A stretch of 64,000 bases of DNA, from the sequence record PP763253.1, one strand, 5' to 3'. The position numbers and the translations under genes are program-made. The notes beneath the pieces are model-generated. The model did not search any database and was not told where the DNA came from. It saw only the letters and a list, made by a program, of their open reading frames with translations. Positions 4,664 through 33,091 of this stretch are shown here, piece after piece. The stretch comes from Acinetobacter phage Ab1-TPeters. Within the stretch, counting starts at the first letter, position 1. Every line of letters starts with the position of its first letter.

Positions 4664-4935
4664 TGACCTCTGTAAATCGCTTAATGAAAGACGCAGTAGC
4701 TCGCGCAAATGGAGTAAAACCGCAAGTATTCGCTTTAGTTACTGCTGGTAATAAAGGTTTTGATTGCTGGTCTAACTCAGCTGATCCAGCTCAGACAGCA
4801 GGTATTCTGGTTTCAAATACAGTGGCTATTATTCAGAACCAAGTAAAACCAGAGAAGCAGAATGAAGTAATTGATTCTTTGATCAAAGTACTTGAGAAGG
4901 CTAAAGAGGCAATTGAGAATAAGCCTGTCTCTTAA
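4663..4935 (+). CDS. hypothetical protein
   Basis: 90 aa ORF, ATGA overlap. Confidence 0.35.
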   Translation: MTSVNRLMKDAVARANGVKPQVFALVTAGNKGFDCWSNSADPAQTAGILVSNTVAIIQNQVKPEKQNEVIDSLIKVLEKAKEAIENKPVS

Positions 4936-4987
4936 ATCGCTCCAAAACCTGTTTAGGTGTGGTTGGGACACTTCCCGCCTAAACAGG
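4924..4987 (+). promoter_or_regulatory. conserved intergenic element copy with 10-bp stem hairpin
   Basis: CCTGTCTCTTAAATCGC...AAAACCTGTTTAGG...CCTAAACAGG, then AGGAG RBS. Confidence 0.4.
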
Positions 4988-5089
4988 AGAGTAACATGTT
5001 CAGATCGATTATCATTAACATCTGGAAGTTTAAGTTGATCATAAAGCCATCTAAAATTAATTTATACTTTGTTTCTCACAATAAAGTAG

Positions 5090-5356
5090 GTGGTTCGAGA
5101 ATTCGCATTTCTCGTAAAATATTTTGAGGTCTTTATGAACTTAATGCATATAAAATTAATTCACAACGTTATCAGAGTTAACCCTGGAAGTAGATTCCCA
5201 GATGGTACAAGACGACCTGCTCTTTATCTTGGTAAAGATCAGTGCTCTTATACACCCTGTCGTGAGGAAGCTCTTAAGCTTAAAGACGAGATCATAGTAA
5301 ATTTCATACCTATGATTAAAGAAAACAATTGGTCAATAGTCCCTTGCTTTGACTAA
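5090..5356 (+). CDS. hypothetical protein (start more likely ATG near 5135)
   Basis: ORF; internal ATG MNLMHIKLI preceded by a GAGG-like RBS. Confidence 0.3.
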   Translation: MVREFAFLVKYFEVFMNLMHIKLIHNVIRVNPGSRFPDGTRRPALYLGKDQCSYTPCREEALKLKDEIIVNFIPMIKENNWSIVPCFD

Positions 5357-5373
5357 GTTCACTAGGTGCTTAA

Positions 5374-5730
5374 TTGCACCTATTTTATTTTATGGAATTC
5401 AAAATGTCTGACAAATTACACTTAAATATGGAAGTGATCTTCTCAACTGAAGCGCGTTCACCTCAGGGAATCCTCATGAACGCTGTTAAGAAGATTTATT
5501 GTCTAAAAGAAAATGATTGGTCTATCTCCAAACACCCAGATGATCTTAAGATTTTAATTCTTAACGCTGAGTTAGATCACATTTCTGATGTAGACAAACT
5601 TCATGACTTGCTTATTGATAAAGCTAACCATGATCTAGTTCTCCAATTGAATATTGGGATAGGGTTTGTTGCTCTAAATGATCGAGTCAATAAGGATTAC
5701 ACCAACGTAGTTGGTTCTAGCAATGACTAG
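5374..5730 (+). CDS. hypothetical protein
   Basis: 118 aa ORF. Confidence 0.3.
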   Translation: MHLFYFMEFKMSDKLHLNMEVIFSTEARSPQGILMNAVKKIYCLKENDWSISKHPDDLKILILNAELDHISDVDKLHDLLIDKANHDLVLQLNIGIGFVALNDRVNKDYTNVVGSSND

Positions 5731-6109
5731 CGAATCTTCATATTTTCCGATGGATGGAAATGCCTCAACTTGGCATGGTCGTCAGATAGAGAAGCTCATT
5801 GGCAGATCATATCAGACGATAGTTAGGCAAGTTGAAGACAATTCCCACTTATTTCCAAGCAAGAATTATGTAATTGTGCCTCACCAGATTGTTAAGTCAG
5901 TTCCAGCTGGAGTTAAGAAGACTTCTTACCGTTGTATTAAGTTTGAAGTTAAAACCCTGATTATGTCAAAAGAAGACTGGATGACTTACTTGATAATGTT
6001 CAAGAATCCTTTTCAAGAAGACTTAGTTAAGCAAATTAAGAAAGGTTGGACATTCGCTGAACTAGAGATTCCACATAAGAAAGTTAAATACAGCCAATCT
6101 TCACAATAA
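5711..6109 (+). CDS. hypothetical protein
   Basis: 132 aa ORF. Confidence 0.3.
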   Translation: MVLAMTSESSYFPMDGNASTWHGRQIEKLIGRSYQTIVRQVEDNSHLFPSKNYVIVPHQIVKSVPAGVKKTSYRCIKFEVKTLIMSKEDWMTYLIMFKNPFQEDLVKQIKKGWTFAELEIPHKKVKYSQSSQ

Positions 6110-6147
6110 CCTGAAGAGCTGCTTTCTTAGATAAGGCAGGAGTTAAC

Positions 6148-6369
6148 ATGATAAAATTTATTAAATCTCTGTTAGTAAAGAAAGCTGAAGTAAAAGAGCA
6201 ACCTTACCATGCTTTAGATTCTGACATTCTGATTTACAGAACTGACAAACCTCATCAAGTGGTCATGGCCGTTAATGAGGAAGCTTTCCTTGAAGTTATT
6301 GTGGTTTCTAAATCAGATATGTCAAAACAACTGGCTAAATTTCAAACGGTGAAAGCAGATGAAAGTTGA
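6148..6369 (+). CDS. hypothetical protein
   Basis: 73 aa ORF downstream of promoter-like motif and AGGAG RBS. Confidence 0.3.
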   Translation: MIKFIKSLLVKKAEVKEQPYHALDSDILIYRTDKPHQVVMAVNEEAFLEVIVVSKSDMSKQLAKFQTVKADES

Positions 6370-30824: not shown

Positions 30825-30830
30825 TTAATA

Positions 30831-32144
30831 ATGAATAACCGTATCAACCTAGTATTAAGCGTAGCTCGTGATTCAGACATCCGCAAGACTACCAATGGGG
30901 AAGTAACTAACATCGGTTTATATAATTTTAGATTCAAAGAGCCTGTTCCATTTGAGGGTGGATTATTCTGTCAAAAGATTTTTGGGCCAATCAAAGACTA
31001 CACTTGTGCATGCGGTGCACGTAAAGGTGGTAAGACAGTTGATGGTAAAGCACCATCTTGCGAGATCTGTGGGGTAGATCTAGTGAAGTCTGAGGTTCGT
31101 TCAAAACGTGAAGGTTATATTGATGCGAAAGTACATTATGTAAATGCATATGCAATGCCACTCTTGGGTGCAATTCTTCAAATTGGTGAGGGTAATATTG
31201 AAGGAATATGCAATGGTACTATGTATTTCCGTTTTAAAGAATCAATGAACGGTCTTCGTTCAATGTCTGGTAAGTTTTATTCAATTGAGCTATCAAAAGA
31301 AGACAAGACTTGGGGTACTTCTGCTGAGGAGCTCCTGGATGCAATTCAAGATCTTGATTTGGATTCTGCTTACATTATGAAGAACTGCAATAGCCGAGAC
31401 GTGAATCGCTATCACGATAAGGGTTACACTATTTCAGACTTCTTCTGCTCTCACGTGCGAGTGTCCCCTCCACGTACTCGTGATATGTCCGTAGTAAATA
31501 AGGATATATCATTTCACCCAGTAAACAACATCTACGCTCGTATCGTTCGAATTGGAGCACGAGTAGCAACTTTAACCAACCAGATTCTGGAATATGATGG
31601 TGAGTTAAACTTAGAGCAATTAAAACAAGTGATTCGTGGTGAATCAATTGTGCTCCAAGCGCTAATTGATGCCTTGTTGTTTAAAGGAGCTACAGATTAC
31701 CGTGGAAATGAGATTCCATCAGTTATCTCTTCACTTGGAGGTAAGGAAGGTATCGTCCGTGGTAACTTACTGGGTAAACGAGTTGACTTCTCTGGTCGAT
31801 CTGTGATCATTTCCGGACCTGAACTTCCGTTAGATACAATCGGTGTTCCTTGGAAAATGATGTATGAGTTGCTTAAGCCGTTTATTCTGAATAAGCTAAT
31901 TGAGCATCTTGAGGATCTTGATGGTATTTTAACCAGCCAGACTTTGAAGAAAGCTCGAACTATGTATGCTAACAAGAGCACAGAAGCAATGATGTTTATG
32001 CGAGAGTTAGCAGACAGACACTGGGCATTCTTGAATCGTGCACCGTCACTTCACAGATACTCAGTAATGGCGTTCAAAATACAGCTTCACAGTGGTAAAG
32101 CAATTAAGCTGCCACCTATGCTTTGTTCACCATTCAACGCGGAT
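30831..32144 (+). CDS. multisubunit RNA polymerase beta-prime subunit, N-terminal half, exon 1
   Basis: Zinc-binding CACG...CEICG region aligns with E. coli beta-prime C70-C88; GKRVDFSGRSVIISGPEL aligns with GKRVDYSGRSVITVGP; FLNRAPSLHRYSVMAFKIQL aligns with LLNRAPTLHRLGIQAFEP; exon ends ...PFNAD, the first three residues of the catalytic NADFDGD motif. Confidence 0.85.
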
Positions 32145-32504
32145 TAATCCCAAGCAGAGTCCGCCCAGATTAGAAATGATTTGGACAAAAACTTCCTTAA
32201 TTGCTGGAACGTCCTTAATGGATAATCAGCAGCTGGGTTCAATTATGAACAGAGTTCAACGACTATCGAAAGCCGATTTAGAGTGGGGACAATCTAAATT
32301 GAAGCAAGTAGAGTACAGCCAAGCGGTAGGTTGTTACGTGGAATGGCGTAACAATAATTCCTTTAAATGGAAACAGGAAGACCTAATCACTGTAGACCAC
32401 AGTGTAAGGATATGAGATAGTCTCAACGTTCTATAGTAATATAGAGCAGTGTTTATAGCCAATAAACACGGTCGTAAGCTAGCGATTTACGATGAAGATA
32501 ATTG
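32145..32504 (+). other. group I self-splicing intron (ORF-less, 360 nt)
   Basis: 5' exon ends in U32144. Internal guide GUCCGC (32159-32164) pairs with exon GCGGAU, with a U-G wobble at the splice site. P7 halves CAACGACUAUCG (~32256-32268) and GAUAUGAGAUAGUCUC (~32409-32425) form GACUA/UAGUC. Terminal G at 32504 sits immediately before exon 2, which encodes FDGDQMAIH. Confidence 0.8.
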
Positions 32505-32678
32505 TTTGATGGGGATCAAATGGCAATTCACCTTATTCTTAGTTGTCAAGCAATGGATGAAGTCGAGTTCATTCGTGTTCAGAACAACCGTATGAATTCT
32601 ATTAACTGGGATACACCTTTACTCGCTCCGAGCCATGAGCAGATTGTGGGCTTACTTGAATTAACTTTGGGCGAATAA
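32505..32678 (+). CDS. RNA polymerase beta-prime N-terminal half, exon 2
   Basis: Translates FDGDQMAIHLILSCQAMDEVEFIRVQNNRMNSINWDTPLLAPSHEQIVGLLELTLGE; aligns with E. coli [55 protein letters not shown]; stop at 32676-32678, so the subunit is split here. Confidence 0.8.
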   Translation, partial: FDGDQMAIHLILSCQAMDEVEFIRVQNNRMNSINWDTPLLAPSHEQIVGLLELTLGE

Positions 32679-32688
32679 GGAGAGATTT

Positions 32689-33042
32689 ATGTTTATTTCA
32701 GAAGAAAAGATTTTACATCACATTTGCTCTAAGAATGAGTTCAATCATTACGTAGGGGAAGATGAGAATATTACTGAGAAACGCCTTCTTGACAGATTAT
32801 GTCAAGAAGGGAAGATAACTCTGATTTCAGAGGACTCTGCTCAACAATGGTACCTTCCTACTAATATCGGGAGATTAAGAGATCTTGAGTATAAAGTTAA
32901 TTATAGAATTGCAGCTAAGCTAAATATGCCTCACTGGATTTCAGTTAAATTAGGTAATCTTATAAATTCCTTCTATCAGGATAACGATTACGTTAACTAC
33001 GCCAGGTGTCTAAATTTACAGAAAAAGGTAGATAAAAAGTAG
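32689..33042 (+). CDS. hypothetical protein
   Basis: 117 aa ORF with AGGAG RBS. Confidence 0.3.
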   Translation: MFISEEKILHHICSKNEFNHYVGEDENITEKRLLDRLCQEGKITLISEDSAQQWYLPTNIGRLRDLEYKVNYRIAAKLNMPHWISVKLGNLINSFYQDNDYVNYARCLNLQKKVDKK

Positions 33043-33043
33043 C

Positions 33044-33091
33044 AAAAGCTGTCTCTTAAAAAGTGCTAAAACCTGTTAAGATGTCGGGGGG
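33044..33091 (+). promoter_or_regulatory. conserved bipartite intergenic element copy
   Basis: AAAAGCTGTCTCTTAAAAAGTG...AAAACCTGTTAAGATGTCGGGGGG then GGGGGGATTTTCCCCTCG hairpin. Confidence 0.45.

Follow-up and report, generated by a model that had tools for sequence, protein, structure and literature searches.

A repeated two-block element, a candidate promoter, ahead of early and middle genes of Acinetobacter phage Ab1-TPeters

Two short blocks set at a fixed distance, followed by a run of G residues, mark the intergenic gaps of the forward early/middle gene block of Acinetobacter phage Ab1-TPeters. The stretch analysed, hereafter called the window, measures 64 kb and is part of the whole genome (PP763253.1); coordinates count from its first base. 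The composite element, about 44 bases long, reads sCTGTyTCTTAA (half A), 12 nt ending in AAAr, CCTGTTaAnnTGTc (half B), and a G-run (GGGG). Its sequence and placement suggest that it is probably a DNA-level promoter, serving the phage's own transcription programme in the forward early/middle (replication) block. A conserved promoter motif is expected in a phage equipped with its own polymerase (PMC7598289). New are the specific two-block element, the non-AT-rich composition of its core, and its conservation in relatives infecting E. coli and Ralstonia.

Copy number and anatomy of the element

A position weight matrix made from the copies identifies exactly ten full elements in the window, all on the + strand, with half A starting at 4924, 11204, 12711, 13128, 15509, 16888, 19635, 30055, 30143 and 33048. 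The first-pass annotation of this DNA had reported at least ten copies, and most of its coordinates stand; those given as 16886, 30051, 30131 and 33044 are off by 2-12 nt, and the site at 17291, counted as a full copy, features the second half and the G-run without the first half. Leave-one-out scores of the ten copies range from 14 to 57 bits, against -1.5 for the eleventh-best site in the window and -1.4 for the best site in shuffled sequence. The second-half pattern alone has 5 matches where 0.12 are expected; the first-half 12-mer alone, searched with two mismatches, is not significant (19 matches, 18.5 expected). About 12 further sites feature the second half only, as cAAaAsCTGTTtAA. Within positions 1-41112, 24 of the 38 occurrences of sCTGTT on the + strand reside in the non-coding 5.8% of the sequence (about 11-fold enrichment, p ~1e-20), and no intergenic enrichment of sCTGTT is seen on the - strand. 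Every recurrent intergenic 7-mer in the window belongs to this same motif family, so that no second motif class is visible there. Iterative refinement of a short core matrix was dropped and replaced by fixed patterns and intergenic enrichment, as the refined matrix drifted into coding sequence, with match counts near shuffle levels.

Full copies are all located between a stop codon and the following ribosome-binding site. Half A starts at the upstream stop codon or within a few bases of it, and half B exactly 24 nt downstream of the start of half A in 10/10 copies; the consensus and the 24-nt start-to-start spacing described earlier thus hold. Runs of at least 3 G residues start 13-17 nt (mode 14) past the first C of half B. 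Measured from the CCTGTTAA block, the G-run begins 6 nt downstream in half of the copies (5/10), and within 5-9 nt in all of them. In most copies the G-run opens a GC-rich stem-loop of variable sequence; over the 32 nt counted from the G-run, folding is more stable than in random windows taken from this genome (Mann-Whitney p ~1e-5). Hairpins already signalled at 19673-19692 (GGGGCGGTTCGAACCGCC) and at 4948/4978 (CCTGTTTAGG/CCTAAACAGG) are indeed found.

The next start codon lies 41-76 nt past half B. Ribosome-binding sites of the GGAG type precede the starts at 12785, 16955, 19725 and 33123, a weaker one the start at 11301. The longest-open reading frame (ORF) starts at 19668, 33063/33081 and 11250 fall inside the element and are devoid of a ribosome-binding site, and the suspicion, raised in the first-pass annotation, that they are mis-called is therefore reasonable; better starts are found downstream.

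The conserved blocks do not share a fold. RNAalifold, run on the ten copies, returned no consensus pair at all, which indicates that the blocks are conserved as sequence rather than as structure. No Rfam family matches the elements, the sole match in the window being an unrelated group I intron. Neither block matches the TTGACA/TATAAT hexamers spaced by 16-18 nt, and sigma-70-like sites are fewer in the window than in shuffled sequence (45 vs 64, and 57 vs 65); one sigma-70-type site (16896-16923, 10/12) overlaps the sixth element. Some full and single sites are found downstream of intrinsic terminators (terminator at 20352-20369, site at 20418; terminator at about 29997-30025, elements at 30055 and 30143), and transcription must restart there.

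Conservation of the element in RP13-like phages

Megablast of 13 kb of the window against 50,697 phage records identified no nucleotide-level relative. The nearest cultured relatives by protein are the E. coli phages EP_H11 and IME392 and the Ralstonia phage RP13, whose RNA polymerase beta' subunits are each about 38% identical to that of the window (38.7% in EP_H11). The closest metagenomic beta' is 48% identical, apart from the identical one encoded by contig L011; this contig is 100% identical to positions 26479-41096 of the window, and hence gives no micro-evolutionary information. A protein-seeded search of viral contigs gave no match. The relatives of the window phage have been grouped as 'RP13-like' phages with hypermodified thymidine (PMC12686479), and the window phage is a new member of these myoviruses, a group with T-hypermodified DNA. 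The thymidylate-synthase-like gene and the long family-A DNA polymerase gene in the window fit thymidine hypermodification of the RP13-like kind, as does a HMUD2-family gene found in the metagenomic relative L002 (positions 1-652). In RP13-like phages, among them RP13, EP_H11, IME392, YerA41, Carin-5 and SP-15, thymidines are so heavily modified that standard polymerases stall on the DNA. A literature search for the way in which RP13-like genomes are transcribed found nothing.

The EP_H11 genome (GC 45%) carries 19 elements in 100 kb, of the form CCGCTCTTTTAGGG-N6/7-rAAAGGCTGTTAAnnTGT (CCGCTCTTTTAGGG-N-AAAGGCTGTTAAnnTGT), in the same register as in the window. Twelve of them align gap-free with the ten window copies, and the start-to-start spacing is 24 nt in 12/12. 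Columns C8, G10, T15, T16, A29, C32, G34, T35 and T36 are invariant in the joint alignment. With a half-B matrix made from the window only, the 19 EP_H11 sites all rank 24th or better among 200,000 positions (both strands); in a cross-scan with the full window matrix, only 2 EP_H11 sites and no RP13 sites scored above shuffles. In EP_H11 the elements are found ahead of the genes for gyrase, thymidylate synthase, DNA polymerase and ligase, and of an operon with a dUTPase gene. They are confined to forward early/middle blocks, none being found in the reverse-strand structural block, and no recurrent upstream motif was identified in the reverse-strand structural block of either the window or EP_H11. 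Several EP_H11 elements come directly after a hairpin and T-run terminator. One copy, at 97490, resides in the divergent gap that heads a forward block; no upstream forward transcript is thus available there to be terminated or processed.

RP13 contains 8-9 two-block copies, tAACGACkCTAT-N10-AGACCTTGTwAG, in which half A is located 22 nt upstream of half B; these, too, are restricted to forward early/middle blocks. In the metagenomic relatives L002, L003 and L005 a core AAAnC(n)TGTTA(G) was found in intergenic gaps (AAATCTTGTTAG, AAAGCCTGTTAGGGG and AAAAGCATGTTAAG, respectively). The half-B core is found ahead of early/middle genes also in relatives with a beta' only about 38% identical. Viral contigs were also scanned for the bipartite motif as an exact pattern; the only hit, GC-rich and due to chance, bears no similarity to the window.

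A second motif class marks EP_H11, RP13 and L003, and a similar one is found in YerA41. It is made by an AT-rich stretch, ..CCGTT-N4-9-GGG and a GC hairpin, and reads ..GCCCGTTCTTTTGGGTGGGGCGG in EP_H11, AGAcnGTTAnTTTGGsGG in RP13 and ACCGTTGTTATTGTTGGGAGCGG in YerA41. Copies were found at 2262, 25018, 25374, 28842, 33057 and 36555 in EP_H11 (L006), at 15188, 19216, 23930, 36446, 38302 and 40733 in RP13 (L009), and at about 10380 and 17600 in YerA41 (L010). The class precedes the polymerase operons in EP_H11, RP13 and L003, and also small ORFs in EP_H11 and RP13. In the window only the eighth element, with GCCTGTTCTTTTT as half B, resembles it. In L002, long GC-rich intergenic repeats (6226-6535, 8951-9404, 11444-11611) are located upstream of polymerase genes and of a 146-aa ORF; they feature two palindromes CTCTAAG-N9-CTTAGAG, followed by TTCAGG...TTCCGTTCTGA..GGGCGG. 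Promoters annotated in the YerA41 record are computer-predicted sigma-70 sites only. The same record (MW570730.1, about 95.4 kb) contains, in an intergenic gap at about 38700-38750, two Illumina adapter remnants GTGTGCTCTTCCGATCT separated by NN, probably an assembly artefact.

A candidate promoter and its alternatives

Position, strand, gene context and recurrence in relatives, the last being the strongest new evidence, support the earlier suggestion of a phage-specific promoter class. Half B would be the core recognition element, aAAr-sCTGTTaA-nn-TGT, conserved in the family. Transcription is predicted to start at the first G of the G-run, 6 nt past the CCTGTTAA block; on that numbering half B would cover approximately -14 to -2, and half A (sCTGTyTCTTAA) approximately -38 to -27. 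Half A may act as an auxiliary upstream contact, comparable to a -35 element or an activator box, and may mark a subclass that is stronger or differs in timing. Where only half B is present, the promoter would dispense with the upstream contact; such sites are found ahead of the genes for helicase, DNA polymerase, ligase and kinase. The transcript would open with a GC-rich stem-loop stabilising its 5' end, followed by the ribosome-binding site and the start codon. The two halves had earlier been taken as a possible direct repeat with two binding sites. They are not of equal standing: half B is the family-conserved core, and half A varies between phages and is missing from about 12 sites.

The putative reader is the phage-encoded polymerase, assisted by a hypothetical specificity factor. 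That the phage encodes its own RNA polymerase is borne out by a multisubunit-type beta' N-terminal fragment (30831-32147), the first part of a beta' gene spanning 30831-32678 on the + strand, downstream of elements 8 and 9. The best PDB matches of this fragment are bacterial beta' chains (E 5e-48), and chains of the phiKZ and AR9 non-virion polymerases are absent among the 60 PDB matches listed. The enzyme is hence a bacterial-type polymerase, and may work with a sigma-like factor. For the 193-aa product of the ORF immediately ahead of beta', a sequence comparison with the PDB gave no relative. The beta' gene is split by a group I intron (Rfam RF00028, matching 32135-32446 with 66 bits, gathering score 50, E 1.6e-14), which interrupts the catalytic NADFDGD motif. 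Exon 1 ends with ...CSPFNAD at 32144, and exon 2 runs from 32505, with FDGDQMAIHLIL, to a stop at 32678; the predicted intron, 32145-32504, is preceded by T and has G as last base. The NADFDGD motif of RP13 beta' is uninterrupted.

A more specific version, to which we give a rather low probability, takes the two blocks as -35/-10 equivalents for the phage core polymerase and the putative specificity factor, with the invariant thymines recognised in their hypermodified form. These thymines would be located at about -30/-29, -12, -10/-9 and -4. Were this so, the promoter would work on phage DNA only, a self-marking similar to the uracil requirement of AR9. With respect to the AR9 non-virion polymerase, the signal would be placed on the non-template strand, with an upstream block in addition, and this mode of recognition would be conserved in the E. 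coli and Ralstonia phages sampled as relatives.

Several observations weigh against a promoter read by the phage polymerase. Among about 40 window proteins scanned with Pfam and PHROG, no sigma-like or MotA-like factor was identified, and neither a second polymerase set nor a virion polymerase. The polymerase operon has two of the elements upstream of it, which implies that another enzyme reads them first, or that the polymerase arrives with the virion. The window half-A matrix retrieves 0 EP_H11 copies, so half A shares only its position and pyrimidine-rich character between phages. In RHph_TM30 and YerA41, both more distant relatives, the motif is not evident in the regions sampled; YerA41 shows there only the different, GC-hairpin-linked motif ACCGTTGTTATTGTTGGGAGCGG. 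No promoter study of the RP13-like family was found in the literature. Moreover, in 4-5 of the 10 copies (4948-4987, 12735-12775, 15535-15568, 33072-33119) half B can pair with the bases that directly precede the ribosome-binding site, with 10 perfect pairs at 4948/4978 and a compensatory CCAG/CTGG double change at 12735. Energies of these duplexes are lower than at other genes, although the evidence is weak (p=0.017), and some cores reside inside terminator-like hairpins (16544-16582 in the window, 32909 in EP_H11). Pairing of half B and location of cores in hairpins weakly favour some role at the RNA level.

As half B pairs beside the ribosome-binding site, RNA reading through from upstream could mask the site, and RNA started at the element would not. 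Where half B or the core is part of a hairpin (4948-4987, 15535-15568, 16544-16582), the hairpin would be formed by read-through RNA only, and the transcript started at the element would begin inside it, in a compact arrangement. Hairpins similarly confined to read-through RNA are found at some late genes of phage T4.

The same pairing speaks for an RNA signal in read-through mRNA, in which half A would be a boxA-like sequence recruiting Nus factors, or the element a site of processing or translation control. The boxA sequence is CGCTCTTA in lambda and TGCTCTTTAACAA in rrn operons, the consensus being (C/T)GCTCTT(T)A, with a conserved boxB hairpin downstream of it in the operon leader. Half A is likewise a pyrimidine-rich decamer with an invariant G, its EP_H11 version CCGCTCTTTTAGGG contains the near-boxA sequence CGCTCTTTTA, and the phage polymerase is of bacterial type. 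Yet half A of the window (TGTyTCTTAA) and of RP13 (CGACTCTAT) fit boxA poorly, and half A is little conserved between phages; no boxB-type hairpin is conserved at a fixed distance, and genomes carry 10-20 copies rather than one per operon leader. Half B, the most conserved part, has no counterpart in nut sites and is left unexplained. Lack of a consensus structure and of Rfam matches, together with copies located downstream of terminators or heading a divergent block, make an RNA-level signal quite improbable. An operator or activator appears unlikely, though less so. Here the two CTGT-containing halves would be tandem sites for a phage regulatory protein, and the promoter would lie elsewhere or not be conserved in sequence, as middle and late promoters of jumbo phages often escape detection by sequence (review PMC7598289). 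The halves do resemble a direct repeat with a rigid spacing of 24 nt, roughly two turns of the helix and 3 bp more, and a third unit, CTGTTTT, adjoins half A at 19622 and at 30129. Against this, nothing else is conserved in the gaps that may act as promoter, about 12 sites directly ahead of genes have one half only, and elements follow terminators, where transcription must restart. Half B is conserved, and half A is not, across phages with a polymerase about 38% identical, unlike two equivalent sites for one protein.

The class II termination signal of T7 RNA polymerase is ATCTGTT, and the CTGTT core of the element resembles it. A specific sequence at which the phage polymerase pauses or terminates would account for elements at gene 3' ends, sometimes overlapping stop codons, and for cores that lie within hairpins followed by T-runs, as at EP_H11 32909. 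It is nonetheless a very improbable reading: the polymerase is multisubunit, not T7-like, the core is preceded by AAAr-s rather than by AT and is followed by no consistent U-run, and the next start codon follows at a short, constrained distance. Ordinary hairpin and T-run terminators already precede several elements, and the EP_H11 copy heading a forward block has no upstream forward gene. Least probable of all, the repeats would mainly be homology patches at the boundaries of recombination cassettes, shuffling small ORFs. A conserved motif with a stem-loop does flank single small ORFs, as the elements at 12711 and 13128 around ORF 12785-13126, and a precedent is provided by the PeSL cassettes of T4-type phages, in which a promoter plus a stem-loop is repeated between small early ORFs (PMC2839356, PMC4122927). 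The likeness concerns the composite of motif and hairpin and the many copies; PeSL promoters differ in being host sigma-70 early promoters. Since PeSLs are themselves promoters, a cassette role would be a by-product of promoter function, not an alternative to it. No close genome is available for comparison, the nearest beta' being 48% identical and L011 identical to the window.

If the element is a promoter, it can be compared with those of other phages. In AR9, promoters of the virion polymerase have a conserved block AAATATATATTAT, 6N and a G at +1 (PMC5312081), and in phiKZ and phiR1-37 the start is likewise 6 nt past the block (PMC5312081, PMC7598289). As these early promoters, the window element is an over-represented coding-strand motif located upstream of early operons, which can be found by bioinformatics alone in a phage carrying its own polymerase genes. 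The order block, 6 nt, G is also shared, the start being mapped there and predicted here. The early promoters of phiKZ, AR9 and phiR1-37 are single AT-rich blocks (about 10-13 nt) centred at -10, whereas the window element is made by two blocks 24 nt apart, of mixed composition, with a core CCTGTTAA..TGT including invariant C and G residues. Phages of the phiKZ type carry two divergent split polymerase sets (virion and non-virion); in the window, which is part of a genome, one bacterial-type beta' N fragment was found. Some AR9 genes carry promoters of two classes (PMC7598289), and the core-only units abutting bipartite units at 19622 and 30129 recall this arrangement. Late promoters of the AR9 non-virion polymerase read AACA-6N-T-A/G on the non-template and 3'-UUGU-5' on the template strand (PMC7598289, PMC9209446). 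They share with the window element a short core some 10 nt ahead of the start, which in the window is a predicted one, a non-canonical thymine chemistry and the tetranucleotide TGTT. The tetranucleotide is on the template strand in AR9 and on the non-template strand in the window, its orientation relative to the gene being thus opposite, and AR9 late promoters have no upstream block. A leftward, AR9-like reading of the element (YA-N6-TGTT, with the + strand as template) was rejected, as its spacing is wrong by one and the elements have no reverse-strand genes on their left.

Among two-block promoters of the sigma-70 type, forms redirected by phages include the T4 MotA-box middle promoters and those of SPO1 gp28 and gp33/34. 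In the window element the blocks are similarly about 23-24 bp apart centre to centre, near -35 and -10 with respect to the predicted start, the upstream block is optional or variable, and the polymerase core is of bacterial type, which makes a parallel with sigma-type -35/-10 promoters plausible. The blocks differ from TTGACA/TATAAT, sigma-70-like sites are under-represented, and the spacing is completely rigid. Promoters of the N4 virion polymerase feature a short conserved DNA hairpin, with a 5-7 bp stem and a 3-nt loop, upstream of the start; the window hairpins are located instead downstream of the conserved blocks, and vary in sequence, stem length and loop.

A family-conserved promoter candidate with a predicted start helps to correct gene starts and to define transcription units. 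The element provides fragments for in vitro transcription, and a handle on the role of modified thymines in promoter recognition. As EP_H11 and IME392 grow on E. coli, the prediction is directly testable. Even as an ordinary phage promoter, the element would be of aid in the annotation of the RP13-like group.

Individual sites and gene context

Elements are numbered 1 to 10 along the + strand, and scores are leave-one-out. In element 1 (4924-4967; 28.9 bits) half A (4924-4935) overlaps the stop codon that closes ORF 4663-4935; half B occupies 4948-4961, and the G-run 4965-4967. Half B doubles as the 5' arm of a 10-bp hairpin (4948-4957 paired with 4978-4987), which ends at the ribosome-binding site of a 43-aa ORF starting at 4996. 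Element 2 (11204-11247; 42.3 bits) is directly 3' of a TAA stop and is followed by a weak hairpin (11243-11257), a terminator-like hairpin (11265-11284) and the likely start codon, 11301. Half B of element 3 (12711-12753; 46.2 bits; start codon 12785) reads CCAGTT, this being the sole copy with an A in that position; a GC hairpin begins at 12747. Element 4 (13128-13168; 47.9 bits) begins 2 nt past the stop of ORF 12785-13126, and is followed by a hairpin at 13166-13185 and a start codon at 13219. In element 5 (15509-15548; 30.8 bits; start codon 15585) half B is the 5' arm of a 15-bp hairpin (15535-15568).

Element 6 (16888-16931; 16.9 bits) is a weaker copy, with hairpin GGGGAAAGCCCC at 16928-16939 and start codon at 16955. 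Element 7 (19635-19676; 47.5 bits) has its hairpin at 19673-19692; the likely start codon is 19725, not 19668. A core of the single type, AAAACGCTGTTTT (19622-19636), resides immediately upstream. Elements 8 (30055-30096; 14.0 bits) and 9 (30143-30184; 43.3 bits) are a tandem pair upstream of the operon which includes the 193-aa ORF and beta'. Half B of element 8, GCCTGTTCTTTTT, makes up the 5' arm of the hairpin spanning 30075-30100, and a hairpin with T-run is located upstream, at about 29997-30025. Element 9 is immediately preceded by the single-type core GAAACAGCTGTTTT (30129-30144), and followed by a hairpin (30181-30206) and by start codon 30243, which matches the gene call in L011. Element 10 (33048-33091; 57.2 bits) is the best copy; its hairpin GGGGGGATTTTCCCC spans 33085-33103, the likely start codon is 33123, and half B can also pair with 33104-33119.

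Sites with a single core are on the + strand as well. Core CAACACCTGTTAAAGTGTAAT (1961-1981) is located 39 nt ahead of start codon 2020, and GAAGAGCTGCTTTCTTAG (6113-6130), a single variant resembling half A, ahead of start codon 6148. Core CAAGAGCTGTTAAGTTAG (7873-7890) resides in the gap 7833-7915. Core CAAGAGCTGTTTAC (16554-16572) occupies the loop and 3' arm of the hairpin at 16544-16582, a strong, terminator-like structure with 16 pairs and a T-run; terminator and putative promoter thus overlap. The half-B-only copy with G-run CAAACGCTGTTTAAGTGCCGGCAGGGGG (17291-17318) is found upstream of the NAD-dependent ligase gene (17376-19217). An intrinsic terminator, GGGGAGTTTAGGCTCCCC plus T-run (20352-20369), is located upstream of core GAAAAGCTGTTTTTAGTAG (20418-20436), which precedes start codon 20448 of a kinase-like gene. 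Core CAACAGCTGTTTAATTTG (24648-24665) lies 25 nt ahead of the helicase start codon (24690), and core AAAAAGCTGTTTAATAAAAG (26741-26760) ahead of the start codon of the family-A DNA polymerase (26779). Core variants CAAAAGCTTTTTAAGTGTAAT (34459-34479) and TAAAAGCTTTTTAAATTGTAAT (38782-38803) precede start codons 34492 and 38828. Short variants had been reported earlier ahead of several of these genes, and are present at 6113, 20418, 24648, 26741, 34459 and 38782, the last two with GCTTTTT.

The forward block (positions 1-41100) includes about 75 genes. In addition to the ligase and kinase-like genes, thymidylate-synthase-like (21180-22229), helicase (24690-26375) and long family-A DNA polymerase (26779-29988) genes are found on the + strand, as are a PolX-like gene and genes for sugar and nucleotide metabolism. 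A myovirus tail module on the reverse strand, sheath and baseplate genes included, takes up the remainder of the window. An actin-like (ALP/Alp7A/MreB-like) protein is encoded at 37199-38140, within the replication block. This gene prompted consideration of the elements as centromere repeats of the ParR/parC type, a possibility rejected because copies are dispersed, not clustered.

Two adjacent genes share the leader CAATAGATAGG just 5' of their start codons (13190-13215 and 13630-13655). Where the forward and reverse gene blocks converge, at 41074-41112, a perfect palindromic hairpin AATAAAATAGGGAGCCTAGGCTCCCTATTTTATT is found, which is probably a bidirectional terminator; contig L011 ends within it.

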